DNA from: an uncultured Chloroflexia bacterium
Lineage (GTDB): Bacteria; Chloroflexota; Limnocylindria; QHBO01
Reading direction: 5' to 3'
DNA length: 64,000 bases
Assembly: GCA_963760875.1 (NCBI GenBank)
Contig: CAVXEH010000002.1
Location: forward strand, 336,258 to 400,257
Position 1 is the stretch's first letter; each line of letters opens with the position of its first letter. Positions 5,095 through 56,819 of this stretch are shown piece by piece. Made by a program: the position numbers and the translations under genes. A model generated the notes under the pieces. That model was not told where the DNA came from, did no database searches, and saw nothing but the letters and a program-made list of their open reading frames with translations.

Positions 5095-5108
5095 GCCGGA
5101 GCCTGCGA

Positions 5109-40564: not shown

Positions 40565-41073
40565 CGGGCGTCATCCCGCGTTGCGCCGCCTCCAATTGGC
40601 TAGCCTCGCACTACCCGGTCGGTCCAGCTCTCCGGCGTGACCCTCGGGGGTCGGGACCTTGCACACGAGCGGATTGCTTCCACGCGACGCCCCGTACTGA
40701 CCGCCCCGCCCGCCGTCTTCGCACAAGGAGCGGCGCAGTGGAGAACGGTCGGCCCCGCCCGATGCGGCCCGAGGTCGACGCCGAACAGCGCCATCGACTG
40801 GATCTAACGCGCGATCTGTGCACATTCCCGGCATGGCCGGTGGATCGCCACGATCGTTGCCGCGTCGCCGGACCTGACATCCCGCGCGCCCGCGACAGCG
40901 CTTGCTTGGGTGTTTGGCGCTGTGCCCGAGGCGGCGGCTAGGGGCAGAGCGGATAACCGGCAACGAAATCATCGATCGTGAATCAGATGACCGTAGCGCA
41001 CGCGGCCAAGCGGTTAGTAGCCGCCGGGCTACAGGCCGCATTCGTGCTCAGAATCGGCCGATTCGGGGCGATT

Positions 41074-41094
41074 GAGAGTCACTCTGAGAGTCAC
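41074..41094. repeat. Tandem 9-mer GAGAGTCAC-tct-GAGAGTCAC
   Basis: Direct observation in the gene-poor segment 40.56-41.54 kb. Confidence 0.7.
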
Positions 41095-41222
41095 GCCTCA
41101 GTAAAGTTGGCTGATCTGACCGGTACCGGATACCGGATTCGGTGTAAGAGGCCGCTCCAAGGTGCTGTGAGCGCGGCCATGCCGCTGGAGAGGGCAGCAG
41201 ACCGCAGGAATCGGCTGGGCAT

Positions 41223-41255
41223 AGGGGTCAGATTAGGGGTCAGATTAGGGGTCAC
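41223..41255. repeat. Tandem 12-mer AGGGGTCAGATT x2.7
   Basis: AGGGGTCAGATTAGGGGTCAGATTAGGGGTCAC. Confidence 0.8.
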
Positions 41256-41538
41256 CCGCAGGACCCATCGAGAGACTCCCCGGCGCGTACCTCGCGGAAG
41301 GGCGGACAGAGCCTGGGACGTCCAGGACTCTCATGCGGCCTACCGATGTCCCCCGCGATTACGCCGCCCAAGCCTTACTGGCCGCTTACTCCTCTGCGGG
41401 CTCGAGCCTTGACGTGCATCACGGTTGCGTGGATCGGCGCTGCCGGCACCCGCCTACCCATACGGACTATTGCCCCCAGAGCCACCCCATGGTCTTCTGG
41501 CACGGATGACGATCAAGTCGGCCACTTTCGCTATTTCA

Positions 41539-41927
41539 TGATCAGGTTGCTCGTCCACCTTCTTCCTAGGAACGTTCAGGACGCCATCGGACGGGTCCTC
41601 TTCTGGGCAGTAGGCATTCCTCTCCTACTCCTGGTACTGGGAGGACTTGTCGTCTATCCCCTCGTTTGGCAGGCGATGAACCCCACTGCGGGTGTTCCGG
41701 CGGCTAGCGCAACGACGGTCACCGCGACGCCGCCGACCTACGGGTACGAACAATGCTCAGAACTCGGCAATCGGATAGCCGATCTAAAGTCCACGGCACT
41801 TCACGAGTACGCCATGTCCGCCTACACGGCGAACGACGTGTATAACGCGCGGGTCGATGCGGTCAACCGGCTTGTTGATCTGTTCAACCGGGAATGCGCT
41901 GGGAAACCGTCGCTGTGGGGCAATTAG
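41539..41927 (+). CDS. Hypothetical small membrane-anchored protein
   Basis: One TM helix (LLLLVLGGLVVYPLVWQAM) then a soluble domain with two Cys. The track ORF starts at 41346; internal start MIRLLVH is more plausible. No known motif. Confidence 0.3.
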
Positions 41928-42384
41928 CGCGTGCACCTCGTCGCCATTCGAGGGATTCGGCGGTGAGGTCGTGGCTACCACATCGCATCGCCGCCAAGCG
42001 CTTCGCGCACTGGACGGGTCAGCAGCTCGAAATCCGCGCTTCGCCAAGCCGGTCACCTAACACGATCGCCTGACCCGGCCAGCCCTACGGTGCTGCGCTC
42101 GTCCCACCCATTCCGTGTGTCGTGGGCCATTTGGCGCGCGGCCTGCGCGACGACCGCGACATAGTCGGGATCACCCTTGACCCCACCCGACCGCACCGTG
42201 GCAAATACCGCTCGTGCGCCAGCGCCCCCGCGGCTCCCGGGGCCAGGTGGCATTCCCGCCTGATGGCGTCGTCCTCGTTGGCTCCGTCCCTCGACGATCC
42301 GAAGGTACTACATCCCACTGGCACAGCCATCCATTAGGGTGCGACCCTCAAATGTCGCGGCGAGCATACGGAGGAAGTCACTTG

Positions 42385-43458
42385 GGTGCGCGACTTGCCA
42401 CAGCCCGACGATGGGGCTCAAAGGCATCGCGCAACCCGCTCGCCATTGCGGGCCTCGCCTTTGCATTCGGCCTCTTGGTCGCTAGCATCCACTACTGGTC
42501 CGTGAGTTACGTCGCGGGCTGGACCTCGCCAGGCTCCACCGTCAAGGGCACCACGCCCCAGCCGCAGCAGACGTCCCTGAGACTGAATCCGATTTGTGGC
42601 GGCGCCATGGTTTGGGTGCCTGCTCGCCACGAATGTGATTGGCGCCAGGTTTCATGGGACGGAAGCGTTAGCCATTTCTACTTCCCGCCCAATGCCCCAT
42701 CATGTCCCCTCGGCTACAACAGCACCGGCTATCTTGGCGCCGGCACCGGTGACCTATCCCGTGTTGGGCGATCCGATGAGTGCATTATGCCCGCCGTGCA
42801 GGGGGTTCCAGACAGGGTTGTGCCAGCCGAGGATCATCCGCCTACGTTCGCGCGACCACCCGACGTGGGAGACGGCCAGCTGGCAGCAGTCACCGCCTTG
42901 ATCGCCTATTTCCTCGTCGTGGCCCTCATCGTCTCTGGCCGCGCGATCCGCGGCACTGTCTCGGTTGGCGAGGATCACAGCCACTCCGTTGCCCAGACGC
43001 CGACGTACCGGCCGCGGGATGCAGTCGACGCGGCGTCCCCGGACAGGCCGTGGCGGATGATCGGACGGCGTCCGCACTTCCTCGTGTCTCTGGCGCCGAT
43101 GAGTGCGCTGCGGCGGATGATCCGACGGCTCCCGATTTGGTTCGTGCTTGTGGGGTTCGCTGCGGTCATCGGCCTCGTGACCATCTTCGGCAACAACAAT
43201 CAGGTCAGGGACTACCTCACCCAGGCGGGATTCACGCACATTGGCGACGTGCAGGTGAGCGCACCGTCGAAGGCTTACGGACAGATCAACGTTGACGTTG
43301 CGACGACCGATCAGGCCTACGCGCTGCGGGTCTGTGAGGCTCTCGTCGGCAGATTCACGGCAAACGATCGGCCATTGGCGGTCTACGTCTTCTTCGACCC
43401 AAATAGGGACATCTCGGGGGGGTTCACGAACAAGCCGCAGTGTTCCCTAGAGCGTTAG
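42385..43458 (+). CDS. Hypothetical membrane protein (3 predicted TM helices, Cys-rich extracytoplasmic segment)
   Basis: GGAGGAA SD before TTG 42385. TM segments LAIAGLAFAFGLLVASIHYW, LAAVTALIAYFLVVALIVSG and LPIWFVLVGFAAVIGLVTIF. No recognisable domain. Confidence 0.4.
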   Translation, partial: GARLATARRWGSKASRNPLAIAGLAFAFGLLVASIHYWSVSYVAGWTSPGSTVKGTTPQPQQTSLRLNPICGGAMVWVPARHECDWRQVSWDGSVSHFYFPPNAPSCPLGYNSTGYLGAGTGDLSRVGRSDECIMPAVQGVPDRVVPAEDHPPTFARPPDVGDGQLAAVTALIAYFLVVALIVSGRAIRGTVSVGEDHSHSVAQTPTYRPRDAVDAASPDRPWRMIGRRPHFLVSLAPMSALRRMIRRLPIWFVLVGFAAVIGLVTIFGNNNQVRDYLTQAGFTHIGDVQVSAPSKAYGQINVDVATTDQAYALRVCEALVGRFTANDRPLAVYVFFDPNRDISGGFTNKPQCSLER

Positions 43459-44481
43459 TGCCAAGCCCGTGGGCCTCCTGATGACCGCCGACCAATCTCT
43501 GCCGGAGACCCACGCGAGGTTAGGGCGCCTCACCCGCACGCATGGGGAGGGCACCTCCGTGCTTCTGGCCGGGGTATCGGCGAGTTCGCTCGTCATGGCC
43601 GTGGTTCTGGGCTTTCGAACCTGTACAGCTCGCGCGTGTTCTCTGGGAGCTGTTGGAGAATCGCCGCGCGTGTCGTCTGGCTATATACCGCAGAGCCAAC
43701 CGCGAGACCTTCCAAGACGACGAGCGCCGCGTTGAATGGGCGGTCCCAACCATGGTTCGTTTGGTGGATGCGCTGGGACCCGGCATCAAGGCCTGTAGTG
43801 CCGGCAGGGCAGGCCTAGCGTTGCCTCCTCCGGCGCTCGGGAGTCGGACGGCGCATCACGCGTAGCGCCGGATGCCGAAGAGCGCATAAGTACCCGACAT
43901 CTCCTGCGCTGCCTGCGCCGATTCACCCTCAGTCGCCTCGACCGAAACCGCCCATCCGAGTCCGCTGGAGGGTTATGCGCTGTTCCCCAGTGAGGACCCT
44001 GATCGTGAGTCGAGTGACCCTGCACGGTGGTGTTAGCCCAACATTCGATCCAGGTTGCGAGGGATCCGACGCGGAATTGCCGAACCCCTTGTACGGGTAG
44101 GTACCGCATGCTCGCTTCGTTCCGGTGGGAACGAGGCACGCGCTCCACGTCGAAGTGGAATGCAGGTGCCCTTAGGACCGACCGCAACTGCGCTGGCGAC
44201 ACCGCCTGAGTCGAAGTCAGGCGGTGCCCTTCGGCAGGCGCTCAATACGGCTCCTGTTGATCGAGCCGTGCGATGCCCGTTGGCGCACCGCGTTGGGGTG
44301 CCCACGCCATTCGCGTCACTTTCATCACGCTCGCCGCCGAAGGTGGAGCATCCCCTCGACTTCGTGCACCGTGGCATGCATCGGACCCGCGCACGGCCGA
44401 GCGCTGTATCCGTTGCCAGACGATCTAGACAACATCCCCACCGACTGCATCCACCTCAAGTCCGCCGCTCAGACGTCGCGA

Positions 44482-45555
44482 TCAGAACGGCATGTCGTCT
44501 ACGTCAGCGAACGACGGTGCTTCCCCGAAGTCGACCTCTTCCTCGTCGGCGGGTCCGGTTTCGTCGTCCATTGCATCCAGTGTGGCAGCGAGATGGCCGA
44601 TCATCACGTCCGCACGCGCGAGCACTTGGTCAAAGGTGAGGATCTCGACCCCGCTGAGGTGCGCGTTCAGGCGGCGGAGGGCGCGTCGACGATCGTCATC
44701 CCAGTCATTCGACCTGCCGATCACGATCCGGATGCGCGGGTAGACCACCGGCAGGTGGTAACGGTCCCTGAGAACGAACTTCTGGTCGTCGAGCTTCTCG
44801 AGGTAGCTCAGGGACTGCCCAAGAGCGGCGCCGAAGTCGCCAGCTGGTCTCCACGTGCGATGCGACGGGTCCCAGGTCAAGACGCTCGCTGACACACGCT
44901 TGAGCTCAAACAGGTCAAGGAACCCGTCGGCCGTCCTCATGATGAAGTCGCCCTGAGCTTCGATGTCGAACTGTCGGCGATCTTCGCGGGCGACGTACTC
45001 GGACCCGAAGATCCACGGGTGGGCCTCGAACCAGGACTGCAGCTCGCGCTCGAGCGGGTCCTCATCAACCAGCGCCGCCAGCTCGGCTTTGCCCCGCCGC
45101 ATGCGGGCGAGATTGCTGGCTGCTTGGAGGACTTGCGTGTCCTCCTCCTCCATCAGACGGATGATTGGCAGGAACGCCTTGGGGTTGCGGCGGAGACCCG
45201 AAAGCAGGCTGAGAATCCCTTGTGCGTCCGGCTTGTTGTCGTCGATCAGAACAGTGAGGTAGCGGGTAGAGCGGCCCTGTGGCAACGCCTCGCGCCATGC
45301 CACCATGTGCGAGAACAAGCTGTCGAATGCAGAGCCCTCGAGCGGGATATGCTCGGTCGGCTCGGATGGCCACGCGTCGGCCAATCCCGATCGCTGCCAC
45401 CGATCGATCTTCAGGCGGATCGAGTGCGGGCTACCGTCGGGTCGGCGGATCAGCACTGCTCGAACGCGGACACGAACTCGGGGACCTTCGTGGAGCGTGA
45501 CATCCTCGGAGAACCCGAGGTTCCCGTGCGTCTCTATGCGGCCCCCCTTGTCCAT
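44482..45555 (-). CDS. PD-(D/E)xK-like nuclease-domain protein (possible DUF4263/Shedu-like); candidate defense protein
   Basis: GGAGG SD 9 nt upstream of ATG. The C-terminal region has the restriction-endonuclease-like signature IMRTADGFLDLFELKR (D...D-x-ELK) followed by RIRIVIGRS. The N-terminal ~200 aa are unique. Confidence 0.45.
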   Translation of the reverse strand: MDKGGRIETHGNLGFSEDVTLHEGPRVRVRVRAVLIRRPDGSPHSIRLKIDRWQRSGLADAWPSEPTEHIPLEGSAFDSLFSHMVAWREALPQGRSTRYLTVLIDDNKPDAQGILSLLSGLRRNPKAFLPIIRLMEEEDTQVLQAASNLARMRRGKAELAALVDEDPLERELQSWFEAHPWIFGSEYVAREDRRQFDIEAQGDFIMRTADGFLDLFELKRVSASVLTWDPSHRTWRPAGDFGAALGQSLSYLEKLDDQKFVLRDRYHLPVVYPRIRIVIGRSNDWDDDRRRALRRLNAHLSGVEILTFDQVLARADVMIGHLAATLDAMDDETGPADEEEVDFGEAPSFADVDDMPF

Positions 45556-45688
45556 AGGGTCCTTCCCTCCCAGACGCTCAGCCTACAGCTCGCGGATGCG
45601 GTTGACACCTGTATCTGACGAGGCGCTCGGCTCCGCCGGCGCTCGAGCTCTCAAGACGCACTCGGTCGCGGATGTCCATGATCCGAGT

Positions 45689-46693
45689 CTACGACCCTCC
45701 CTTTGGGTCATCGTCGTCGTCTTGGTCGGCCCAGTACAGCATCTCCATCGACATGGCCGTCCAGGTCACGCCTGTGTCGCCCACGGTCGCGAACACTTGA
45801 TCGAACCGCGGCGCGTCGAAGAAGAAGAACTCGGCACCGCGAACGTCCTTCTGCGTGTATCGGACTCGCGCCATTCGCCACAAGCCACGAATGAGCTTGA
45901 TGCCCATGAAAGTCATGGGGACCTGCTGGTCCGGCCGCACCCACCGATACGTCGTGAACCACCTCGGATCCTCGGTCCGACTGTCGCGCTTCTGCTCGAT
46001 GTGGTAGATCGCAGGCCCGTGGTGGCGGGTCAGATTACTGTCGCCGAACGAGAAGCCGTACTCGGTTGGGGTCAGGGCCATCCCGTGCTTGGCGCTGTTG
46101 TAGAGCCCCGAGTCCAAGAATTGACGGGCGAAGTACCGGAGAAAGTGCTCAATGTTGTCCACGCTGGCCCACCACATGTCGCGGTCCGGCACGGGCTGCA
46201 GGTACGTCGGGTCCGCAACGAGCTGGAATACCTTCGAGACGGGCTCGCGGAACGCATAGTCCTCGTACTTGGTGTCGAGGAAGCGCTCGGTCACCATCCG
46301 CCGGAACTTCGCAGGACCGCGGACGCGGGCCAACTCGAGGGCGGGACACGGCGGCAAGCTCTCGTGCGCGAGGTACAGACGCATCAGCGTCTCGCCAACG
46401 TGGTGCGCCAAGACTTCGCTCTCGGCCAGGACAAAGTGCTCTGCCGACTTCGCCACTGCCGGCTCATCTGGCTCGATCGGCTCCGGCTTCCCCGTGGCCT
46501 CACCGAACTTCACCCCGCCGAATTCACCACCTTTGCGGATAACCGCGGCCCGAGCGTCTCGCGCTCCTGCCGTGATGAGCAGGTTGTCGAACTGCTCCTG
46601 GAAATAATCGGCCGGCTCAGCCGCGTAGTAGGCGCGGTTGATGCCTGGGAAGTTCTCGTCCGCGAGCTTGTCGTCAGGGCTACGGCGCGGCAT
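45689..46693 (-). CDS. Hypothetical protein (334 aa), upstream partner of the nuclease-like gene
   Basis: Long ORF with protein-like composition and an acidic tail DQDDDDDPKGGS. No recognisable motif. Confidence 0.45.
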   Translation of the reverse strand: MPRRSPDDKLADENFPGINRAYYAAEPADYFQEQFDNLLITAGARDARAAVIRKGGEFGGVKFGEATGKPEPIEPDEPAVAKSAEHFVLAESEVLAHHVGETLMRLYLAHESLPPCPALELARVRGPAKFRRMVTERFLDTKYEDYAFREPVSKVFQLVADPTYLQPVPDRDMWWASVDNIEHFLRYFARQFLDSGLYNSAKHGMALTPTEYGFSFGDSNLTRHHGPAIYHIEQKRDSRTEDPRWFTTYRWVRPDQQVPMTFMGIKLIRGLWRMARVRYTQKDVRGAEFFFFDAPRFDQVFATVGDTGVTWTAMSMEMLYWADQDDDDDPKGGS

Positions 46694-46936
46694 TCAACGA
46701 TGCTATCGCCGGTCAGCGGAGGCGGCGCATCGTTTCGGGCGTCTCGCCGAGCGCGAGGCTGGCACTTACGCAGCAGGCTCAGTGATCGTGAGCGCGGACT
46801 ACAGATGTTGTGGGGTTCGCTAGGCACGAAAGGAGTCGAGCCTTCGGTCCCCTGATCCAGAGTCAGGTGCCTTACCGCTTGGCCACGCCCCAACGTTTGA
46901 ACGGGACCCGGGCTTCGCCCGGCCTTCCTTTTGGGA

Positions 46937-47022
46937 TGAGTCAGATGCCCATCCATTTCTGAGTCAGATGCCGATCCGAAAAATCGGATGAGTCTGTTGC
47001 CCTATCGAGCTCCATGAGTCTA
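46937..47022. repeat. GAGTC-containing direct repeats plus a perfect hairpin, immediately upstream of the tRNA fragment
   Basis: GAGTCAGATGCC x2 (46937, 46961); hairpin ATCCGAaaaaTCGGAT; GATGAGTCTG and CATGAGTCTAG. Locally AT-richer. Confidence 0.6.
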
Positions 47023-47189
47023 GCGTGCTCGCTGGCTGCGAGTCCTCCCGAGCCTCCCGACCTGCATAGTCCGGATCCGGCGTTGTCCCCGTAAGCTCCA
47101 CATGGGTCTCAGTCGATGATCTCGCGCTCGATCATGACTCTCGGTCGCCGCGGATCGCCTGCTTTGGAACACGCGTAGGAGGAGAGTGC

Positions 47190-47240
47190 CGGCGGCTGTT
47201 AACCGCTTGGTCGCAGGTTCGAGTCCTGCCGCCGGAGCCA
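47190..47240 (+). pseudogene. tRNA-Asn(GUU) 3' fragment (positions ~26-76: anticodon arm, variable loop, T-arm, acceptor 3' strand, CCA) lacking a 5' acceptor strand and D-arm
   Basis: C-GGCGG-CTGTTAA-CCGCT-TGGTC-GCAGG-TTCGAGT-CCTGC-CGCCGGA-G-CCA. The anticodon loop CUGUUAA is canonical for Asn and the T-loop TTCGAGT is canonical. Upstream sequence (...ACACGCGTAGGAGGAGAGTGC) cannot form a D-arm or acceptor pairing. Confidence 0.55.
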
Positions 47241-47275
47241 CTCTTGTCGTTGACTTCCTAAGTATGCTCTAGGAT

Positions 47276-47890
47276 GTGAACGACAACGCACGGATGACGG
47301 GGCCTGATCAGGAAGCCCTGTTCGAGACGGCCAGCGCCCAGGCCGGGTACTTCACGGCGGCCCAGGCGCTGGATCACGGCTTCAGTTCGGCGCTGCTGAC
47401 CCATCACACGAAGACCGGGCGCTTCCTGCGCGTTGCCCGCGGACTGTACCGGCTGCGCGACTACCCGTCCGCGCCGGGCGAGGAGATCGTCGCCGCGTGG
47501 CTTCGCCAGGCACCCCGCGCGGTCGTGTCGCACGAGTCAGCGCTGGAGCTGCTCGGCCTGTCCGACACCATCGCCGATCAGGTCCACCTCACGGTCCCTC
47601 GCGAGCGTCGTCGACTGGTGTCGCAACCCGGGGTCACGATCCACACCACGACGCACCCATTCACCGAGACTGACCTCATCAGCCGCCACGGCGTTCGGCT
47701 CACGGCGCCGGCCCGCACCATCGTCGATGTCGCGGGAGCGGGTCTGGCTCCCGACCAGGTCGCGGCAGCCGTCAGCCAGGCGCTGCGGCGAGGGCTCACC
47801 ACGCCGGCCCTGCTCCGCGAGGCGGCTCGTTCGCGCGGTCATCGGGTCCAGCGGCTGGTCGAAGCCGCGCTCGCTGGGGCTGGTATATGA
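47276..47890 (+). CDS. AbiEi-family antitoxin/transcriptional regulator (type IV TA / abortive infection)
   Basis: N-terminal AbiEi_4-like wHTH (FETASAQAGYFTAAQALDHGFSSALLTHHTKTGRFLRVARGLYRL) and a C-terminal domain. Overlaps the downstream AbiEii gene by 4 bp. Confidence 0.65.
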   Translation: MNDNARMTGPDQEALFETASAQAGYFTAAQALDHGFSSALLTHHTKTGRFLRVARGLYRLRDYPSAPGEEIVAAWLRQAPRAVVSHESALELLGLSDTIADQVHLTVPRERRRLVSQPGVTIHTTTHPFTETDLISRHGVRLTAPARTIVDVAGAGLAPDQVAAAVSQALRRGLTTPALLREAARSRGHRVQRLVEAALAGAGI

Positions 47891-48774
47891 GGTACGCCTC
47901 TGCGGGCGCCTTCCGCCGGGCGCTCGAGATGCGTCTTACTACGCACGCGCGCGGCACCGGCAGCTCGGTGGTCCGCCTGCGCAAGGAGGTCGCCTTCGAT
48001 CGGCTGCTCGCTCGTCTGTTCGCCGTGGCGCCGGCGCGCTGGGTCCTGAAGGGCGCCCTGGCGCTCGACTACCGCTTCGGCGACCGCGCCCGAACGACGA
48101 AGGACATCGATCTCGCCAACACTGGGGACGAGGCTTCTGCGACGAACGAGCTGCTCGCGGCGCAGGCGGTCGATCTTGGCGACTTCTTCGGCTTCGCGAT
48201 CGAGCGCACGAGCGCCCTCGAACGTCTGGCGGAGGGTACCGCCGTGCGCTATCACGTCCGCGCCGAGCTGGCCGGTCGGGTGTTCGATGAATTCCTGCTC
48301 GATGTGGGCTTCGACCCGCCAACCGGGATCGAGCTCGACCGGCTACACGGGCCGGACCTCCTGGTCTTCGCCGAGATCACGCCCGTCGAGGTCGCAGCCA
48401 TCCCGATCGAGTTCCACGTGGCCGAGAAGCTCCATGCCTTCAGTCGCGTCTATAGCGTGGGCTCGATCGTGAGCACCCGCGTGAAGGACCTCGTCGACCT
48501 CGTGCTCATCGCGGCCGAAGCCACTCTGGAGGCAGCGAGGCTCCGGTCGGCCATCAGGACCACCTTCGGTCGCAGGGCGAACCGTGAGCTGCCCGCAGGC
48601 CTGCCCCGTCCACCAGGCGACTGGCGCGTCCCGTATGGCCGGATGGCGCGTGTGGTCGGCCTCGATCCTGACCTTGAGGCCGGCTTCGGCTTGGCCGCGC
48701 GGATGCTCGATCCGATTCTCGGGCGCACCGTTCACCGTGGCGCGTGGGATCGTGTCGCTCAGACCTGGACCTGA
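47887..48774 (+). CDS. AbiEii/AbiGii-family nucleotidyltransferase toxin
   Basis: Motif LKGALALDYRFGDRARTTKDIDL (KGGxAL...R.S.DIDL) typical of DUF1814/AbiEii nucleotidyltransferases. 295 aa. Confidence 0.7.
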   Translation: MRYASAGAFRRALEMRLTTHARGTGSSVVRLRKEVAFDRLLARLFAVAPARWVLKGALALDYRFGDRARTTKDIDLANTGDEASATNELLAAQAVDLGDFFGFAIERTSALERLAEGTAVRYHVRAELAGRVFDEFLLDVGFDPPTGIELDRLHGPDLLVFAEITPVEVAAIPIEFHVAEKLHAFSRVYSVGSIVSTRVKDLVDLVLIAAEATLEAARLRSAIRTTFGRRANRELPAGLPRPPGDWRVPYGRMARVVGLDPDLEAGFGLAARMLDPILGRTVHRGAWDRVAQTWT

Positions 48775-48867
48775 TCTCGCGGCAGCCAGGAGTGTCCGGC
48801 CTGGCCGTGCTTCTGGTTGACCTGGCGGCGATGTCACAGGTGACCGAGTGCTACCGTCCAGTCCAGC

Positions 48868-49767
48868 ATGAGCCAGGTGCCTCAAGCCCGTGACGTGCCC
48901 GACAGCGTCTACGCCGCCCTGCGGCCCCTGCTGACCTCGATCGCCTACGAGATGGTGGGCGCGGTGGGTGACGCGCAGGACATCGTCCAGGAGGCGTTCC
49001 TGCGCTTCCATCGGGCGGGCGCCGAGGGCCTGGCGATCGATTCCCCGAAGGCCTGGCTGTCCAAGGTTGTGACCCGCCTCGCGATCGACCATGTCCGATC
49101 GGCACGAGTCCGCAGGGAGACCTACGTCGGGACCTGGCTGCCGGAGCCGCTCCTGACCGATCCGACCCCGGACGCGGCTCGATACGTCGAGACCGCCGAG
49201 GCCCTTTCGATGGCCTTCCTGGTCCTGCTCGAGCGTCTCAGCCCCGTCGAGCGGGCGGTGTTCCTGCTGCGCGACGTGTTCGACTTCGGTTTCGACGAGA
49301 TCGCGGACATCGTCGGCAAGTCCCAGGACAACTGTCGCCAGATCGCGGTGCGCGCCCGGCGACACATCGAGGACGGCAGGCCGCGGTTCGAGGCCTCGCG
49401 CGAGCGCCGCGAGGCGCTGGCCCGGCGGTTCTTCGAGGCAGTCGGTGCCGGAACGACGGACGGGCTCGTGGACCTGCTGGCGGCCGACGTCGTGCTCTAC
49501 ACCGATGGCGGCACCCACGGGCCGGCGTTCCCGCAGCCGATCCACGGGCGCGAGCGTGTGACGCGGATCTTCAGCGGCTACCGCCCGGCCTCCTTGGGAG
49601 GCGTCGAGCAACGGGTCGCCGAGCTCAACGGCCAGCCGGGGATGGTCTTTCTCGATGCCGAGGGTCGGACGGTGGCCGTCATCGGGCTCGATATCGCCGA
49701 CGGTCAGATCATCGCCGTGCGGGCGATCAGCAACCCGGAGAAGCTCCGCCACCTCGACCAGCGCTGA
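48868..49767 (+). CDS. ECF sigma factor of the ECF41 type with C-terminal SnoaL/NTF2-like extension
   Basis: Sigma-70 region 2 (DIVQEAFLRFHR) and region 4 (SPVERAVFLLRDVFDFGFDEIADIVGKSQDNCRQIAVRARRHI). The hallmark YVGTWLPEP linker motif (YVGPWLPEP in ECF41) is present. Confidence 0.75.
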   Translation: MSQVPQARDVPDSVYAALRPLLTSIAYEMVGAVGDAQDIVQEAFLRFHRAGAEGLAIDSPKAWLSKVVTRLAIDHVRSARVRRETYVGTWLPEPLLTDPTPDAARYVETAEALSMAFLVLLERLSPVERAVFLLRDVFDFGFDEIADIVGKSQDNCRQIAVRARRHIEDGRPRFEASRERREALARRFFEAVGAGTTDGLVDLLAADVVLYTDGGTHGPAFPQPIHGRERVTRIFSGYRPASLGGVEQRVAELNGQPGMVFLDAEGRTVAVIGLDIADGQIIAVRAISNPEKLRHLDQR

Positions 49768-49925
49768 GCCCGCCCGCGACCGAGCAAACATCCTGTCACT
49801 GGCTTGCCGCCGGTTCCGTCTTGATTGTTGCCGGGTCGTCACCGGCTTCGCAGCGAAGAACGCGACCATATGAAGCTCGAGCTGACCATTGCAGCCGATT
49901 TGAACGACCCCGGAGAGGAGAAACC

Positions 49926-50405
49926 ATGACCGATGACAAGCCGACCACGAAGCGCCCGGGCGAGCGCAAGTCGGACGAAGCGTGGACCGACGAAGAGAAG
50001 GCGGCGATCAAGGAGTACCGCCGGGAGCGAAGCCGCTCGGCGCGCCCCAGGAGGCGCGGCAAGCAGGACGAGGCGGACGGCGAAGCCGAGGTGCTCGCCA
50101 AGATCGCCCAGCTGGACGAGCCGGATCACACCATGGCCGAGCGACTCCACGCGATCGTCAAGACCGCCGCGCCGGGGATGTCGTCCCGTACCTGGTACGG
50201 GAGCCCCGCGTACTACCGGGATGGACAGCTCGTCTGCTACTTCCAGGAGCGCGCCAAGTTCAAGGCGCGATACGCGGTCCTGGGCTTCAGCGACAAGGCC
50301 CACCTCGACGACGGCTCGATGTGGCCGGTCATGTACGCCCTGCCGGAGATGACATCTGCCGACGAGGCGAGGATCACCGCGCTCGTCAAGAAGGCGGTGG
50401 GCTGA
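49926..50405 (+). CDS. DUF1801 (YdhG-like) domain protein
   Basis: GGAGAGGAGAAACC-ATG strong SD. The C-terminal half (WYGSPAYYRDGQLVCYFQERAKFKARYAVLGFSD) resembles DUF1801. The N-terminus is Lys/Arg/Glu-rich. Confidence 0.5.
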   Translation: MTDDKPTTKRPGERKSDEAWTDEEKAAIKEYRRERSRSARPRRRGKQDEADGEAEVLAKIAQLDEPDHTMAERLHAIVKTAAPGMSSRTWYGSPAYYRDGQLVCYFQERAKFKARYAVLGFSDKAHLDDGSMWPVMYALPEMTSADEARITALVKKAVG

Positions 50406-50432
50406 GAAAGCCACGAGCTGAGGCCAACCTCC

Positions 50433-50693
50433 TTACCTCGACATGTGTCTGGAACGACTGGCAGCCGTGCGACTCCGGTCTCGTTTCAGGACCGCACGAC
50501 AGTCTGGGCAATATCGCTGGACCGGCGAGCGGCGTTCGACGACTTGATGGCAACGCGCGCACTGGACGAGCGCGACCTTCAGCCACGCGCGCGATCGAGC
50601 CGTGGGGCGGGAGAGCGAGATGCGACTCTCAGTCGTTCCACGCGAATTCAGTACACGGCCGGCTCCCGCCCGGCCAGATGACCCTGCGGCCAA
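50433..50693 (-). CDS. Stand-alone 86-aa zinc-ribbon-like ORF homologous to the C-terminal module of the serine recombinase at 60585-62345 (fragment or domesticated small protein)
   Basis: AGAGRVLNSRGTTESRISLSRPTARSRAWLKVALVQCARCHQVVERRSPVQRYCPDCRAVLKR aligns with the recombinase C-terminus. About 80% nucleotide identity over ~250 bp. Confidence 0.4.
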   Translation of the reverse strand: MAAGSSGRAGAGRVLNSRGTTESRISLSRPTARSRAWLKVALVQCARCHQVVERRSPVQRYCPDCRAVLKRDRSRTAASRSRHMSR

Positions 50694-50751
50694 TCCGTTA
50701 ACTCGAACGGGGTACCTCGACTGGCGGCACCCCGACGCTTTCCGCGGCGCC

Positions 50752-51969
50752 TTACTCGAGCGCGTTGTCGACTGACATGGCAGGGATGCCTACCTCGATC
50801 GCAAGCCCGCCGGCTTGCCTCGCGCGAGCCCTGACGATGCCGCCATGGGCGTCGGCAATCGCCCGCACAATCGAGAGGCCGAGTCCCCACCCTTCTTGGC
50901 CAGCCGATCGATCGGGCAGTCGCTGGAATGGCTGAAACAGCCGCTCGACTTCCATCGCCGGGATCGGCAGGCCGGTGTTGGTGACCCGCAGGACGGCCTC
51001 CCCGAAATGTCTTTCCGTCGAGATCTCGATCGCACCGTTGGGGATGTTGTACTTGGTCGCGTTGTCGACCAGATTGGCCGCGAGCCGCTCGAGCAGCTGA
51101 GGATCACCGCGCACATCCGCGCGATCCAAGCGCTCCTCGAGGTGCAGCCCGGCTGCCTCGATGCCGTGGCGCCGAGTTCGCAGCGCGGCGTCGACGGACT
51201 CGGCGAGGTCAGCCCGCTCCGCGCGTTCCAGCCCGCGCTCGCCGCGTGCCAGGGTGAACAGCGCCTCGAATAGCCGCTCCTGCTGCTCCTCGGCGACCAG
51301 AACTCGCTCGAAGGTTGCGCGCCAGCCGTCCATCGTGGGCTCCGGGTCGTCGAGCGCGTACTGGACCAGCGCCCGCTGTCGCGCGAGTGGTGTGCGCAAC
51401 TCGTGCGAGGCGTTGGCGACGAACTGCCGTTGCGCCTCGAAGGACCGCTCGAGTCGGCCCAGGAGATCGTCGAACGTCTGCCCGAGATCCTTCAGCTCGT
51501 CGTCCGGGCCGGCCGGGGCCAGCCGGAGCCCGAGGTTCGTGCTCGAGATCTCCCGTGCGGACGCGGACATGGTGCGCAGTCGCCGCAGCAGACGCCCGGC
51601 CACGAACCACCCGATCGCCACTGAGGCGAGGGCCAGGCTCGCAATCGCCACCATGGACAGGATCAGGTAGTAGCGTTGCTCCGCAACATGCTGGCCCTCG
51701 ACCACCGATCTGAGCAGCTTCGGCAGGTCCGCCGCGGAACCACCGAAGGGAGCAGCCAGGGTGTTCGCACCTCCGCCGCCGAACGGGCCGCCGAAGTCGA
51801 CCGTCACCTGGCCGTCGGAACCAACGTTCACGGCCAGATTGGTCGTCGTGAACGCCACATACGAGACCCCGAGGAGTGCAGCCCCCGCGAGCAGGATCAG
51901 CGCGCCGTACAGCAGCGCCAGGCGGAGGCGGATCGTGATCCGCGGCAGGTGGGGAATCGGGAGTCTCAT
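50752..51969 (-). CDS. Sensor histidine kinase (HAMP-HisKA-HATPase)
   Basis: H-box ASHELRTPLA; N, G1 (DNATKY), G2 (GWGLGLSIV) boxes; two N-terminal TM segments. Confidence 0.8.
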   Translation of the reverse strand: MRLPIPHLPRITIRLRLALLYGALILLAGAALLGVSYVAFTTTNLAVNVGSDGQVTVDFGGPFGGGGANTLAAPFGGSAADLPKLLRSVVEGQHVAEQRYYLILSMVAIASLALASVAIGWFVAGRLLRRLRTMSASAREISSTNLGLRLAPAGPDDELKDLGQTFDDLLGRLERSFEAQRQFVANASHELRTPLARQRALVQYALDDPEPTMDGWRATFERVLVAEEQQERLFEALFTLARGERGLERAERADLAESVDAALRTRRHGIEAAGLHLEERLDRADVRGDPQLLERLAANLVDNATKYNIPNGAIEISTERHFGEAVLRVTNTGLPIPAMEVERLFQPFQRLPDRSAGQEGWGLGLSIVRAIADAHGGIVRARARQAGGLAIEVGIPAMSVDNALE

Positions 51970-51991
51970 CTCGCCTCGCCCGCTGGTGTCA

Positions 51992-52645
51992 TCAGATCCG
52001 GTACCCAGCCTCCACGACCGTCTCGATGAGCGGCGGATCGCCCAGCTTGGCCCGGAGGCGGCTCACGGTCGTCCTGACCGCCTGCGAGAACGGATCGGCG
52101 TTCTCGTCCCACACTCGCTCGAGGAGTTCCTCCGATGACACCACGCGACCCTCGGCGGCGAGGAGCAGCTCGAGCACGCCCAGCTCCTTGGGGCTCAGCT
52201 CGACGAGCTGGCCGGCGCGCCGGACCCGTCGGCGGGCGGTGTCGAGCTCCAGATCGTCGTGCCGCAAGACTGGCGGGAGGGCGGGTTGCGAGCGCCGCAC
52301 GAGGGCGCGGACGCGAGCCACCACTTCGGGGAGGTCGAACGGCTTGCCGATGTAGTCGTCGGCCCCGCGGCCGAGCCCGTCGACGAGGTCATCGGTCGTG
52401 GCCGCGGCCGTCAGCATGAGCACCCGGGCGCGGCATCCTCGCGAGACGAGCTCGGCGCAGACCTGGTCGCCGTGGACGCCGGGCAGGTCGCGGTCGAGGA
52501 CGATGACGTCGTAGTCGTGCTCCAATGCGCGCTCGAGGCCCGCACTGCCATCGAGCGCGATGTCCACCGCCATCTGCGCCCGGCGCAGGGTCGCACCGAC
52601 GATCTCCGCCAGCTCCTGGTCGTCTTCGATCACCAGCACGCGCAT
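51992..52645 (-). CDS. OmpR/PhoB-family response regulator
   Basis: REC domain (VLVIEDD...DVIVLDRDLPG...) plus C-terminal winged helix (LSPKELGVLELLL...). Confidence 0.85.
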   Translation of the reverse strand: MRVLVIEDDQELAEIVGATLRRAQMAVDIALDGSAGLERALEHDYDVIVLDRDLPGVHGDQVCAELVSRGCRARVLMLTAAATTDDLVDGLGRGADDYIGKPFDLPEVVARVRALVRRSQPALPPVLRHDDLELDTARRRVRRAGQLVELSPKELGVLELLLAAEGRVVSSEELLERVWDENADPFSQAVRTTVSRLRAKLGDPPLIETVVEAGYRI

Positions 52646-52905
52646 CGGCTCCTACCGTCGACTTCCCATCAAGCGAATCGGCCCGCATCGGTGGCCGACC
52701 CGTCCTGCCCGTCCATGATCGCTTCCCCACGTTGCGCGGGCATAACACCACGTCGCGAGGCGCCGAGTCTGCTGTTCGCGGCGTTATCCGGTCGCAACAT
52801 CCCATCGCCCATACCTCTTCACGGCGGCGGCGAACGCGGCCGGTTACCGGTAGTGACGAGAGGAGCGACCATGCGTGCCGCCTGGACGAGGCGAAGGGAA
52901 ACCCG

Positions 52906-53622
52906 ATGAGCGGGCCAGCGACGACAATTCTGCGCGCCCGCGGACTGCGCAAGGACTATGGCGCGGGTCCAGGACTGGTGCGGGCTGTTCATGACCTCGA
53001 CCTCGATGTCGCGCGCGGCGAAGCCGTCGCCGTGATGGGCCCGAGCGGCTGTGGGAAATCCACACTCCTCCACCTGCTTGGCGGGCTCGATCGGCCCACG
53101 GCCGGCGAGGTCTGGGTCAACGAGCGCCGGATCGACGCCCTCTCGCAGCGCGCCCTGGCCCGGGTGCGGCAGATGGAGGTTGCCTTCGTCTTTCAGGCGT
53201 TCCACCTCATGGAGGAGCTCACCGCCCAGGAGAACGTGGAGCTCCCGGCGCTCCTTGGTGGACGCCGGCCGGACGACGCCCGTCGGAGTGCCAGATCCCT
53301 GCTCGACCAGGTCGGCCTCGCCGGTCGGGCCGAGCATCTGCCATCGGGGCTCTCGGGCGGCGAGCGCCAGCGGGTGGCCATCGCCCGGGCGCTGGCCAAC
53401 GAGCCGGCGATCGTGCTCGCCGACGAGCCGACAGGCAATCTCGACAGCACCGCGACCCGGGAGGTCGTCGCCTTGCTCGGGTCACTCCACCGATCGGGTC
53501 TCACGGTCGTCATCGTCACCCATGACGAGCGGGTCGCCGCGACCGCGGATCGCATCGTGTCGATGCGCGACGGCGCCTTCGGCGATCGGCATGGCGCCAA
53601 CGGCGCCGTCGCGAGGAACTGA
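52906..53622 (+). CDS. ABC transporter ATP-binding protein (MacB/LolD/FtsE-like)
   Basis: Walker A GPSGCGKST; signature LSGGERQRVAIARAL; Walker B VLADEPTGNLD; H-loop VTHD. Confidence 0.85.
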   Translation: MSGPATTILRARGLRKDYGAGPGLVRAVHDLDLDVARGEAVAVMGPSGCGKSTLLHLLGGLDRPTAGEVWVNERRIDALSQRALARVRQMEVAFVFQAFHLMEELTAQENVELPALLGGRRPDDARRSARSLLDQVGLAGRAEHLPSGLSGGERQRVAIARALANEPAIVLADEPTGNLDSTATREVVALLGSLHRSGLTVVIVTHDERVAATADRIVSMRDGAFGDRHGANGAVARN

Positions 53623-53624
53623 CG

Positions 53625-55463
53625 ATGGGCCGCGCGCTGCTCATCGCCCGCCTGGGGTTGAAGGACCTGGGACACTACGCCGGCCAGTCCCTCCTGCTCC
53701 TTCTCGCGGTGGCCACCGGGGCCGCGATGTTGACGCTCGGCCTGGCCCTGGATGGAACGACCAACGACCCGTACGCCCGGACCCGCACGGCCACAAACGG
53801 GCCCGATGTGGTGGCCGAAGCCGCCCCGTCCGATGCCCTCGGGAGCGGCTCGGGGCCGGCCCAGCCAGGCCCCGGGCGCGGAGGACCGGAGAGCCAGACC
53901 AACGTCGCCGATGCCAGGGTGCTTGTGCCCCTCGAGCAGGCGGCTGGCGTGATCGGCTCCTCAGGCCCGTTCCCGATGACATGGGGCTTGCTGCGGATGC
54001 CGAGTGGGGACGGCGCGGCGTTGGTGGTTGGGCGCGACCCTGCGGCGTCGTCGGTCGACCAGCCGCAGTTATTACAGGGCAGCTGGGTTCGGCCCGGCGG
54101 CGTGGTGGTCGAGGCCAGCTTCGCCGCGGCAGTCGGTCTTCAGATCGGCGATCCGCTGAGCATCGGCGGCCGGTCCTACGTCGTGGTTGGAATCGCCGTG
54201 ACGGCCGCGATTCCCACCTATCCGGATGGATGCCATTACCTCGGCTGCTTCCTGGTCGGGACCCTCGGCGATTCCAACCCGGGTCTCATCTGGGTCCCTG
54301 CTCCCGACGTGCCGGGCATCGCTGCGGCAAGCAAGGAGCCGCTCTTCTACGTCTTGAATCTGAAGCTCAGCGATCCCGCCGACGCTCCGGTCTTCGCCGA
54401 ACGCCGCAATGCGGACGCCGCCGCGACGGGCATCACGCTGTTCACCTGGCAGGGCATCCGTGCCGCCGATGCCGATGCGGTCGGCACCATGCAGCAGGTG
54501 CTGTTCACCGGGAGCGCACTGCTCGATCTGCTGGCACTCCTGAGTGTGGTGGTGCTCGTCGGCGCTCGCATGGCGGCGCAGAGGCGCCGGGTCGGCCTGC
54601 TGAAGGCCGTTGGTGCCACGCCCGAGTTCGTCGCAGCGGTACTGCTCGTCGAGCACGCCCTGGTCGCGGTTTGCGGCGCCGGGGCGGGCCTGCTCATCGG
54701 CTGGCTGGCGGCGCCGTTGATCAACGGACCGGGCGCCGGGCTCCTGGGCGCGGCCAGCGCCGCGTCGCTCACCGGCTCGGTCGTCGCGATCGTGGTGGTG
54801 CTCGCGCTCGCCGTGGCCATGGTGGCGACGCTCGTGCCCGCCGTGGGCGCTGCCCGGCAGAGCACCGTGGCGGCACTGGAGGACGCGGCGCATCCCCCGC
54901 GGCGTCGGGAGACGGTGCTGCGGGCCACGGAGCACCTGCCCGCGACGCTGCTCGTGGGTGTCCGGCTTGCGATGCGCCGGCCAAGGAGACTGGCGGTGAG
55001 TGCGCTCAGCGTCGCGGTCACAACCTTCGGGCTCGTCGCGGTGCTGATCGTCAACACCACCGGCTGGTCACTCGGCCCGCGCGTTGCCCAGGCGACCGTC
55101 ATCGTGTCGGTGATGCTCGTCATCCTGGCCGCGGTGAACGCCCTTGTCATCGCCTGGGCCACCGCGCTCGATACTCGACGGCCAGCCGCCCTGATGCGTG
55201 CCCTCGGCGCAACACGGGTGCAGGTGACGACCGGCTTGGCGCTGGCCCAACTGGGCCCAGCGTTCGTGGGAGTGCTGCTCGGCATCCCTGGCCCGATCGT
55301 GCTCTACCTGCGTGGCGGCCGCCTGTCGACATCACCCCCGGTGCTCCCGCTGGTGGCCGTGGTCATCGTCACGCTGCTGGCGATCGCGGCGCTCACCGCC
55401 CTCGCGACGCTGGCTGCTTCCCGCGGACCGGTGGCCGACGTCCTTCAGGCCGATACCGCCTGA
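53625..55463 (+). CDS. ABC transporter permease, FtsX-like (MacB-type, two FtsX domains)
   Basis: ATG overlaps the upstream ATPase stop. 612 aa with two sets of 4 TM helices and large extracytoplasmic domains. Confidence 0.8.
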   Translation: MGRALLIARLGLKDLGHYAGQSLLLLLAVATGAAMLTLGLALDGTTNDPYARTRTATNGPDVVAEAAPSDALGSGSGPAQPGPGRGGPESQTNVADARVLVPLEQAAGVIGSSGPFPMTWGLLRMPSGDGAALVVGRDPAASSVDQPQLLQGSWVRPGGVVVEASFAAAVGLQIGDPLSIGGRSYVVVGIAVTAAIPTYPDGCHYLGCFLVGTLGDSNPGLIWVPAPDVPGIAAASKEPLFYVLNLKLSDPADAPVFAERRNADAAATGITLFTWQGIRAADADAVGTMQQVLFTGSALLDLLALLSVVVLVGARMAAQRRRVGLLKAVGATPEFVAAVLLVEHALVAVCGAGAGLLIGWLAAPLINGPGAGLLGAASAASLTGSVVAIVVVLALAVAMVATLVPAVGAARQSTVAALEDAAHPPRRRETVLRATEHLPATLLVGVRLAMRRPRRLAVSALSVAVTTFGLVAVLIVNTTGWSLGPRVAQATVIVSVMLVILAAVNALVIAWATALDTRRPAALMRALGATRVQVTTGLALAQLGPAFVGVLLGIPGPIVLYLRGGRLSTSPPVLPLVAVVIVTLLAIAALTALATLAASRGPVADVLQADTA

Positions 55464-55515
55464 TCGGCCGCTTCATTGCAGGGCAGTGAGGGGCCCGCGC
55501 TTCTCAGCACGCTTG

Positions 55516-55827
55516 CTATAGGTCAGAGCCTGGATCGGCGTTCCGTTGCACCTTCCGTCGCTGCATCATCGCCTCCCGGCTGAGCTTGCGTTTGAGGACG
55601 GCTCGACACGCCGGACAATGGCGTTGTACTGGGGACTTCCGCTCGACGACCTGAAGGCAGCCGGCGCACTCGACGAGTGCGATCTTCAGCCACTCGCGGG
55701 AGCGAGGCTGGTGGGGGAGCGGGATACCGCTCTCGGTCGCGCCCAACCGATTCAGTACACGGCTGGCTCCGGCCCGCCGGAGCCAGCTACCAGGTGGTAG
55801 CATGTTTTCGACCCGTGATCCAAGCAC
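55516..55827 (-). CDS. Stand-alone 103-aa zinc-ribbon-like ORF homologous to the serine recombinase C-terminal module (second copy)
   Basis: SWLRRAGASRVLNRLGATESGIPLPHQPRSREWLKIALVECAGCLQVVERKSPVQRHCPACRAVLKR. Nucleotide similarity to 50.5 kb and 60.7 kb copies includes the conserved palindrome GGCTCCGGCCCGCCGGAGCC. Confidence 0.4.
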   Translation of the reverse strand: MLGSRVENMLPPGSWLRRAGASRVLNRLGATESGIPLPHQPRSREWLKIALVECAGCLQVVERKSPVQRHCPACRAVLKRKLSREAMMQRRKVQRNADPGSDL

Positions 55828-56034
55828 GGATCGGCCGTTCTAGCGCCCTGACAAGCTAGCCGAAGAGGGTTAGGTTCGAACCGCTTCCGACGCTCTGGAC
55901 GAGGAGCGCGGCCGGCATGGTGATCGCGCCGCTCTCAACCCGCGGATTCGACGGTTTTGGTCGTCGCTTGACGCATGTAAGGCATTACCCTATGGTAATG
56001 CCTTACCAACTGGTCATGCGTTAGGAGCACCGTC

Positions 56035-56794: not shown

Positions 56795-56819
56795 TGAACA
56801 CCCGCGCCCCTTGTCCCTG

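Follow-up and report, generated by a model that had tools for sequence, protein, structure and literature searches.

A stretch of 64,000 nucleotides from an uncultured Chloroflexia bacterium (contig CAVXEH010000002.1, positions 336,258 to 400,257 of the forward strand; hereafter the window) contains the 3' part of a tRNA-Asn gene whose last bases recur within the gene of a large serine recombinase (LSR). How did a tRNA gene come to lack its 5' part at this place, and why does its 3' end reappear inside a recombinase gene? We consider it likely that the fragment (47191-47243, + strand) is a chromosomal half-site of integrative elements that are moved by this LSR in Chloroflexota-like genomes, as part of a model in which the element-side attachment site lies within the recombinase gene itself.

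A partial tRNA-Asn gene

Positions 47191-47240 read GGCGG-CTGTTAA-CCGCT-TGGTC-GCAGG-TTCGAGT-CCTGC-CGCCGGA-G-CCA, which corresponds to positions 27-76 of tRNA-Asn(GUU), including the anticodon loop CTGTTAA and the T-loop TTCGAGT, and are followed by CTC. An exact search with 45 nucleotides, using one genome per species, retrieved 28 loci, mostly in metagenome-assembled genomes (MAGs) of Chloroflexota (related loci carry our L numbers below). Intact 76-nucleotide tRNA-Asn(GUU) genes, from Chloroflexota and 'Proteobacteria' MAGs, account for 24 of these 28; they are identical to the window from position 27 on, and the 50 nucleotides of the fragment show no substitution relative to them.

The first-pass annotation, made from the sequence alone, had described a tRNA-Asn 3' part running to CCA with both of these loops, no D-arm or 5' acceptor strand upstream of it and no complete tRNA-Asn in the window, and this description holds. 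A full-length tRNA call over the fragment, which would speak against a partial copy, was looked for with ARAGORN, and there is none at 47150-47250. The Rfam tRNA model scores 27.8 bits against a threshold of 29 bits, with model positions 10-63 aligned and the acceptor stem left without alignment. A search of the whole window for a tRNA-Asn 5' half with up to three mismatches found none, and nothing in the DNA 5' of 47191 is able to pair with the acceptor strand CGCCGGA. The fragment, from which the 5' 26 nucleotides are missing, has neither the full cloverleaf, with its 7-bp acceptor stem and D-arm, nor the tRNA-finder call that mark a functional tRNA-Asn.

A probable crossover core shared with the recombinase gene

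The end of the fragment, CC-GCCGGAGCCA-CTC at 47229-47243 (+), is an exact 15-nucleotide direct repeat (CCGCCGGAGCCACTC) of positions 60804-60818, and its CC falls on tRNA positions 65-66. A 13-nucleotide recurrence of the tRNA 3' end in the recombinase gene had been noted before; the match exists and extends to 15 nucleotides, but it lies at 60806-60818 rather than at 60813-60825, which is 7 nucleotides off. In this GC-rich window same-strand 13-mers recur at 0.87% of positions and 15-mers at 0.15%, and a 13-nucleotide match is expected by chance for roughly a quarter of fragments of such size. A match of 13-15 nucleotides would by itself be weak evidence; it is the comparative data, not the statistics, that show it to be real, because homology to related loci (L002, L031 and L032) switches partner exactly at this point. 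The 15-nucleotide identity thus appears to be the crossover core that is common to the chromosomal site and to the element site in the LSR gene.

The junctions in related loci, whose types and sequence relations can be read directly from the contigs, carry this argument. In L002 a 95.6% homolog of 60819-61308 comes directly after an intact tRNA-Asn, and the homology begins exactly at the 15-nucleotide core. The 3' end of the LSR gene overlaps an intact antisense tRNA-Asn at the core in 10 loci (L031, L033-L036, L038-L041 and L055). The closest relative, L032, whose LSR gene has 94% nucleotide identity to that of the window, contains a 55-nucleotide fragment (5062-5116) that is 100% identical to the window and is fused directly to the LSR gene, so that its arrangement equals the window minus 47244-60803. 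Far-end junctions, in which flanking DNA is followed by the core and then by the end of the recombinase gene (the tail, see below), are present in L035, L036, L055, L045 and, twice, in L030; since such junctions occur, complete elements are bounded by the core. In L035, L036 and L055 the attR-type far-end junctions and the tRNA-side attL junctions lie on the same contigs. Junctions in which the LSR gene continues through the core into the tail are found in the window, L030 and L043. Hybrid attL and attR junctions are thus found among the relatives, while the window holds attP-type and attR-type junctions and the fragment only. The target is tRNA-Asn in all 13 loci with a visible junction.

Read against these junctions, 47191-47243 is likely to represent the chromosomal (B) arm and the core of an LSR attachment site, and the fragment is a genuine recombination scar at the edge of mobile DNA. 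The earlier proposal of a partial copy left at an island boundary is therefore kept as far as the attachment-site remnant is concerned, but not as a single island between an intact tRNA-Asn and a displaced copy; that picture is not supported. What the window shows is a composite insert of 13.6 kb with the fragment at its tRNA-proximal side.

A second match to the fragment runs in the other direction. Positions 47226-47241 (+) have a 16-nucleotide exact inverted match, CTGCCGCCGGAGCCAC, at 62212-62227 (-), within the LSR N-terminal codons for AAAGAT. It is kept only in the closest relatives and is probably a coincidence of GC-rich Ala/Gly codons.

The recombinase, its tail and the attachment site

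The LSR gene (60585-62345, - strand) was delimited with Pfam and homologs and encodes 586 residues from a conserved MIKIPAG start. The protein contains the Resolvase (PF00239, 6.9e-21), Recombinase (PF07508, 1.1e-10) and Zn_ribbon_recom (PF13408, 1e-8) domains, that is, the catalytic resolvase, recombinase and coiled-coil-bearing zinc-ribbon domains that characterize LSRs. Its N-terminal domain matches the TP901-1 integrase (3bvp) at 1.3e-11, and the YxRVST motif is invariant in 15 LSR homologs. Residues 1-513 correspond to a usual LSR, and positions 60585-60803 encode in addition a 73-residue tail with a CxxC-x12-CxxC pattern. We found 44 homologs, of which the full-length ones have 513-527 residues and end either in ...EWLRR, just past the core, or in ...EWLRRQDSNLRPSG; the latter ending arises from reading on through the antisense tRNA as far as the TAA in the anticodon loop. 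The copy in the window has the unsplit configuration, with the 73-residue tail. Among ten tail copies, taken from six loci and the window, nine keep the four cysteines, dN/dS is 0.25-0.45, and the tail is joined to an LSR C-terminus in 17 further metagenomic protein clusters. For the tail peptide, sub-threshold zinc-ribbon matches were all that was found.

An alignment of about 45 att junctions defines the attP-type site as a 44-bp imperfect palindrome, cagtacacgcccGGCTCCGGC-CC-GCCGGAGCCactCACTTACTG, at 60783-60826. It lies inside the LSR coding sequence and holds core copy 2 (60804-60818); the element-side site in the alignment reads CAGTAAGTGgccGGCTCCGGC-CC-GCCGGAGCCactCACTTACTG. The 21-nucleotide half-sites match as inverted repeats at 18 of 21 positions in relatives and at 15 of 21 in the window. 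The right half of attB, which consists of the acceptor 3' strand and CCA, is near-identical to that of attP, and the left half, which is the T-arm, is unrelated to the attP left half. The site thus has the length of about 40-50 bp, the short shared core and the imperfect inverted half-sites around a central dinucleotide that are the usual layout of a serine-integrase attP (PMC3783163).

No candidate for a directionality factor was found: a 216-residue open reading frame (ORF) upstream of the LSR gene has no Pfam or PADLOC match, and the same holds for the ORFs in the 1.5 kb that are available between the LSR gene and the end of the window.

A composite insert built from tail-ended modules

The DNA between the two cores (47244-60803) is a composite accessory island of 13.6 kb, delimited by Pfam and PADLOC annotation and by its absence from L032. 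It comprises three modules: module 1 with AbiEi, AbiEii, an ECF sigma factor and DUF1801; module 2 with a histidine kinase, a response regulator, an ABC ATPase and an FtsX permease; and module 3 with AHSA1-like, ArsR, DUF1801, APH and glyoxalase genes. Self-comparison of the window reveals three direct copies of the tail-coding sequence, with about 75% mutual identity, one at the end of each module; the first two were absent from the first-pass annotation. Copy A (50469-50697, -) is 76% identical to 60606-60806, has a decayed core with about 35 nucleotides of the LSR side kept, and encodes a peptide that retains CxxC-x12-CxxC; it appears to be the remnant of an earlier element. Copy B (55589-55785, -) is an attR-type junction that ends in a 12-nucleotide core, CCGCCGGAGCCA, at 55774-55785. 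Copy C (60585-60818) is part of the intact LSR gene and has about 75% homology to the other two over 60606-60815.

A similar arrangement is found in the genome to which L004 and L030 belong, where an intact tRNA-Asn is followed by AbiE and, about 10 kb further on, by an N-truncated LSR with a tail, past which lie two PIN/Phd cassettes of 1.17 kb, both with tail and core at the end. The L030 contig, on which an intact tRNA-Asn with AbiE behind it is also present, thereby carries three tail-coding copies. Its two cassettes (1121-3400) are adjoining, near-identical units, each with a PhdYeFM/PIN toxin-antitoxin pair followed by the core and the tail-coding sequence, and their tails and that of the N-truncated LSR are all near-identical (pN 0.5-1%, pS 3-4%), a pattern that indicates recent duplication or repeated insertion.

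Several features of the insert and its surroundings deserve mention in their own right. The AbiEi/AbiEii pair downstream of the fragment (47276-48774, +; PADLOC 8.5e-65 and 1e-83) has counterparts in L004, L014 and L015, where AbiE also follows an intact tRNA-Asn. The 3' part of AbiEii has 81% DNA identity to its counterpart in L030 and the remainder just 38-49% protein identity, which suggests recombination within the AbiEii gene. A 17-nucleotide inverted repeat, TTGTCGTTGACTTCCTA / TAGGATGTGAACGACAA (88% complementary), adjoins the core at 47244-47286 and closely precedes the AbiEi start codon; it is likely to be the operator of an autoregulated AbiE operon. The DUF1801 gene of module 1 (49927-50405, +) adjoins tail copy A, 27 nucleotides from its stop codon, and has 64% protein identity (70-72% DNA identity) to a gene about 115 nucleotides 5' of an intact tRNA-Asn in L007, L021 and L026. 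The first gene of module 1 is thus of a type found downstream of tRNA-Asn and the last of a type found upstream. In addition, a conserved motif of about 60 nucleotides, CTTGAACGGACGCTAAGGTCGGTGATGnAGGTTCGACTCC..., with a T-loop-like TTCGACT, lies just past the LSR stop codon at 60477-60530. Partial copies are present at 58862-58907 and 59687-59760, and the motif follows single genes in module 3 and stands beside both PIN/Phd cassettes of L030 (1400-1500 and 2570-2670). Rfam searches of 40.4-41.5 kb and 58.7-60.7 kb at permissive thresholds returned nothing, so that the T-arm-like motif at 60477-60530 is not a recognised RNA family; it may mark older cassette boundaries.

The GAGTC repeats and a neighbouring tRNA-Gln

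Upstream of the fragment, at 46937-47045 (+), lie three 18-nucleotide direct repeats, a hairpin and two extra GAGTC sites. The repeat copies start at 46937, 46960 and 46989 (consensus TGAGTCAGATGCCCATCC), the further GAGTC sites are at 47016 and 47040, and the two GAGTCAGATGCC repeats (46938 and 46961) and the perfect hairpin ATCCGAaaaaTCGGAT (46973-46988) are present as first described. The cluster exceeds random expectation: there are five same-strand GAGTC sites in 110 nucleotides, and the maximum in 300 composition-preserving shuffles was four, reached in only four of them. GANTC (CcrM-type) methylation was considered as a cause of the cluster and rejected, as GAGTC occurs 65 times overall against 64.6 expected and the organism is not an alphaproteobacterium.

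These repeats had been taken to resemble recombinase arm sites. LSRs act on short sites of about 40-50 bp and have no arm-type sites, and the enzyme linked to the fragment is an LSR. Moreover, the conserved 18-nucleotide motif that contains GAGTC, TGAGTCAGRTGCCCATCC, is found about 170-230 nucleotides 5' of the LSR start codon in five related loci (L031, L034, L048, L052 and L053), with two copies each in L031, L052 and L053, and in none of the five does it stand beside a tRNA-Asn fragment. A degenerate tRNA-Gln-like sequence lies between the motif and the LSR start in related elements, and tRNA-Gln-like remnants are present near LSR genes in seven loci (L031, L034, L039, L047, L048, L052 and L053). 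The window's own LSR gene has an upstream region of different sequence. The arm-site reading is not supported, and the GAGTC repeats are probably not classical arm sites; the 18-nucleotide motif appears to be a conserved part of one class of these LSR elements, and our best guess is that the repeats are candidate binding sites for a regulator or an accessory protein. Neither the 18-nucleotide repeat nor a relative of the LSR has a match in the IMG/VR viral contigs, and a phage origin is therefore unsupported.

The window has an intact tRNA-Gln(CUG) of its own at 46819-46893 (-; ARAGORN, Rfam 49.4 bits), which is absent from the first-pass annotation. It is divergent from the tRNA-Asn fragment and lies 44 nucleotides to the left of the first 18-nucleotide repeat. 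In sequence the repeat unit is similar to the part of tRNA-Gln that spans the D-stem and the anticodon stem, and GAGTCAGGTGCC inside the tRNA-Gln gene is the complement of that region. The repeats could not be linked to tRNA-Gln transcription, since no sigma-70-like promoter match was found in 46600-47400. The repeat region has no stable RNA fold relative to shuffled sequences, and a structured-RNA reading of the fragment and the repeat region was rejected, as both fold no better than shuffles (z = 0.73 and -1.28). Between the 5' end of tRNA-Gln and the first repeat, at 46908-46931 (+) and thus on the strand opposite to tRNA-Gln, there is a terminator-like hairpin, CCGGGCTTCGCCCGG followed by CCTTCCTTTT. 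A Logan short-read contig (L001, from ERR11571143) equals 44026-46895 at 100% and ends 2 nucleotides past the 5' end of tRNA-Gln, which may point to another copy of tRNA-Gln or to strain differences at this place in the source community. A Shedu SduA homolog (44482-45555, -; PADLOC 1.4e-45) lies downstream of tRNA-Gln, and the pair formed by tRNA-Gln and the tRNA-Asn fragment is accordingly flanked by two defence systems, Shedu and AbiE.

The 5' limit of the fragment

The fragment has the same 5' boundary in the window, L032 and L042, and in the latter two it is abutted by a 220-nucleotide segment, module Y. In the window, module Y (41028-41246) carries GAGAGTCAC twice and directly adjoins an inverted copy of part of the 5' end of the fragment, the two forming a combined feature at 41006-41246 (-): positions 41006-41027 match 47189-47210 in inverted orientation at 20 of 22 positions. 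Positions 41002-41246 equal L032 5091-5334 at 88%, on the opposite strand relative to the LSR gene. The anticodon loop, at which the truncation lies, contains the palindrome GTTAAC. In L006 a tyrosine integrase (PF00589, 8.7e-30) adjoins a 46-nucleotide tRNA-Asn 3' fragment. The 414-residue and 334-residue ORFs beside the fragment in the window were considered as unrecognised integrases and rejected; they have no Pfam or PADLOC matches.

Further to the left, positions 20955-21011 (+) contain the 5' two-thirds of a tRNA-Gly(UCC), with the acceptor strand, D-arm and anticodon arm and no T-arm (Rfam 25.3 bits). It coincides with a drop in GC from about 72% (1-20 kb, with core genes of arginine biosynthesis) to about 63% (21-47 kb), and the low-GC 26 kb thus lie between a tRNA-Gly 5' part on the left and the tRNA-Asn 3' part on the right.

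A model of integration and stacking

In the model that we favour, attP, the 44-bp palindrome centred on CC, lies within the 3' part of the LSR gene, and attB is the junction of T-stem and acceptor stem at tRNA-Asn positions 65-66. Because the right half-sites are near-identical (GCCGGAGCCA, here plus CTC), integration would regenerate the tRNA 3' end and leave a direct repeat of 12-15 nucleotides, of which 47229-47243 and 60804-60818 would be the two copies. At the same time integration would split the LSR gene: the integrated form would stop at ...EWLRR inside the antisense tRNA, whereas a circular or tandem form would retain the 73-residue, four-cysteine tail. The tRNA-side junction would remain attB-like and the far junction attP-like and, because the junctions keep this character, elements and recombinase-less modules could build up in tandem. 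Repeated use of the site would account for the 13.6 kb and the three tail-ended modules between the cores. The loss of the 5' 26 nucleotides of the tRNA would go back to another, independent event at the anticodon arm, most likely the integration of a tyrosine-integrase element and/or inversion of the 6.2 kb at 41028-47188.

In well-studied LSRs, attP recombines with neither attL nor attR. The accretion step in the model would accordingly require relaxed half-site requirements, a departure from the attP x attB rule, and several other observations also weigh against the model. The half-sites of the window's own attP match at only 15 of 21 positions, and the crossover would be placed at CC from symmetry alone; its position, the order of events and any activity of the recombinase are what we infer. 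Modules 1 and 3 start at the core without an LSR remnant, which simple serial integration of LSR elements does not predict. Neither an intact tRNA-Asn nor the far end of the LSR element is in the window and, as both lie outside it, the full element cannot be delimited here. The related loci all come from metagenome assemblies, and no PF00589 tyrosine integrase that might have caused the truncation is found among the ORFs at 41-47 kb.

More speculatively, the two forms of the LSR, with the tail when circular or behind a tail-ended unit and with a stop beside the tRNA, might report the state of the element. Such a switch could decide in which direction recombination runs, or bring integration to a halt, with no directionality factor or beside one, and the tRNA-Asn 3' end, through the shared right half-site, could serve as a reusable docking platform on which recombinase-less modules with toxin-antitoxin, defence, regulator or transporter genes stack in an integron-like manner. 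Taken as a whole, we regard this extended picture as rather unlikely.

Alternative explanations

The alternatives that deserve most weight concern the 5' boundary. The fragment may be the displaced 3' copy (attR) of a tyrosine-integrase island, with the intact tRNA-Asn at its other end and the repeats acting as arm-type integrase/excisionase sites. This would cover the 5' boundary and is compatible with the LSR account of the 3' end, and as a whole we give it somewhat less than an even chance; for the 5' boundary, the idea of a displaced copy is plausible. Displaced tRNA fragments are established end-markers of islands (Islander, PMC4383910), and L006 shows what such an island looks like, with an integrase at the edge beside the 46-nucleotide fragment and an intact tRNA-Asn in the same MAG, on contig L024. 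The anticodon loop is the exact starting point of the fragments in L003 and L011. In L032 and L042 the fragment breaks off where it does in the window, and next to it comes module Y with its two direct GAGAGTCAC repeats, which L022 also carries downstream of an intact tRNA-Asn and L006 downstream of its fragment. The window, however, does not combine an edge integrase with an intact tRNA and a displaced fragment: no tyrosine integrase is found in 41-47 kb, the 47 kb to the left contain neither an intact tRNA-Asn nor a 5' half, module Y is 6 kb off and inverted, and the GAGTC motif occurs elsewhere upstream of LSR genes and not at fragments. Another possibility, which we hold more tentatively, is that inversion of 41028-47188, with its ORFs of unknown function, Shedu, tRNA-Gln and 18-nucleotide repeats, between inverted copies of the anticodon arm parted the fragment from module Y. 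The 20/22 inverted repeat (41006-41027 and 47189-47210) would have provided the ends, both breakpoints fall at the same nucleotide (CCGGCGG), and the GTTAAC palindrome could let a site-specific recombinase work in either orientation. Module Y is contiguous with the fragment and the LSR gene in L032 (88%) and lies on the opposite relative strand in the window, and L042 has the same junction between fragment and module Y. On the other hand, two loop positions of the left copy are mismatched, neither an invertase nor a tyrosine recombinase is nearby, and past module Y there is no homology between the window and L032, so that two independent remnants are equally possible.

Two trivial explanations fare worse. 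An assembly chimera joined at tRNA-derived repeats might be suspected, as the L001 contig (44026-46895) ends 2 nucleotides past the 5' end of tRNA-Gln and tRNA fragments lie at the composition steps near 20-21 kb and near 47 kb. Contigs would be expected to end at tRNAs and variable islands even without chimerism, however; the joined parts share no sequence at the junctions, and the junctions of the fragment with the LSR gene and with module Y recur in independent assemblies (L032, L042 and L037), which makes a chimera improbable. A decayed tRNA pseudogene with a chance GC-rich match of 13-15 nucleotides has even less to recommend it. The frequency with which 13-mers recur in the window (0.87% of positions) and the coincidental-looking 16-nucleotide inverted match (47226-47241 and 62212-62227) would allow for it, but the homology switches between LSR gene and tRNA exactly at the core in L002 and L031-L041, the 50 nucleotides of the fragment are without substitution, and L032 lacks exactly the DNA between the cores. 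These junction comparisons refute a chance match, to which we assign a negligible probability.

Comparison with known systems

The nearest described system appears to be the ssrA islands of Dehalococcoides with their serine recombinase DsiB (McMurdie et al. 2011, PMC3146451). Both systems belong to the same phylum, and in both an LSR (DsiB has roughly 540 residues) occupies the edge nearest the target and is transcribed in its direction, the 3' end of the recombinase gene contains a direct repeat of the target 3' end, the stop codon depends on the junction, and insertion takes place in the T-arm region of a tRNA-like structure. Tandem repeat-bounded islands, some without a recombinase, and a tRNA-like sequence in the integration module are further likenesses; the target repeat embedded in the recombinase gene is accompanied here by three tail and core copies in the window and three in L030. 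The authors of the ssrA-island study suggested that a complete recombinase may exist only when the element is circular or follows another island (PMC3146451). The systems differ in host class and in target, which is the tmRNA gene ssrA there and tRNA-Asn here; an Rfam search of the window gave no tmRNA. The core has 20 nucleotides there and 12-15 here, and the six-gene module of the ssrA islands (DsiB, the small serine recombinase DsiA, RecF-like, ParB, Mom and tRNA-like) was not seen in the 1.5 kb upstream of the LSR gene. The C-terminal portion of DsiB is reported to be divergent (PMC3146451), while the present tail, with its four cysteines, is conserved and evolves under purifying selection.

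SCCmec and SCC-like islands are inserted at rlmH (orfX) and are moved by the large serine recombinases CcrAB and CcrC. In SCCmec as in the present elements, a serine recombinase inserts DNA at the 3' end of a conserved gene that stays active, and repeated use of the site gives tandem arrays with direct repeats of about 15 nucleotides, some units of which lack a recombinase. The target of SCCmec is protein-coding, the ccr genes are interior and are not split by integration, and the phylum is another one, so that SCCmec arrays may be seen as a functional analogue. A comparison of ssrA islands with SCCmec has also been drawn in PMC3146451.

Other systems share individual features. The SSV-type archaeal integrases combine an attP inside the integrase ORF with a tRNA target and a gene that is split so as to flank the element (PMC7253208, PMC8371274). 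They are tyrosine recombinases, in which the split breaks the catalytic protein, whereas the present enzyme is a serine recombinase whose integrated form lacks nothing but the tail and has every recognised LSR domain. Islander-type tyrosine islands have a displaced 3' tRNA fragment at the boundary (PMC4383910), and the 5' limit at the anticodon arm, a classical crossover region, and the integrase beside the fragment in L006 are in line with them. They differ in that no tyrosine integrase is near the window's fragment and that the enzyme linked to the 3' end is of the serine type, with a core of 12-15 nucleotides. The phage serine integrases (phiC31, Bxb1, TP901-1 and A118) are alike in domain architecture, in an attP of about 44 bp whose inverted half-sites flank a central dinucleotide, and in a differing attB left half-site. 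Their targets, however, are protein-coding or intergenic, their attP lies outside the integrase gene, and the present LSR has no relative in IMG/VR viral contigs.

Implications

Serine integrases are valued tools of genome engineering, and the control of their direction is an active question. A natural family with attP inside the integrase gene, in which integration would alter the C-terminus of the enzyme, bears on this question, and as the part that is lost is a conserved domain it offers a testable case of state-dependent forms of a recombinase. Short repeats of tRNA 3' ends in recombinase genes can also be used in annotation to delimit such islands. Our analysis extends the design of the Dehalococcoides ssrA islands to a tRNA target in other Chloroflexota, and suggests that this design is a wider way to build arrays of accessory and defence genes in poorly studied soil bacteria.

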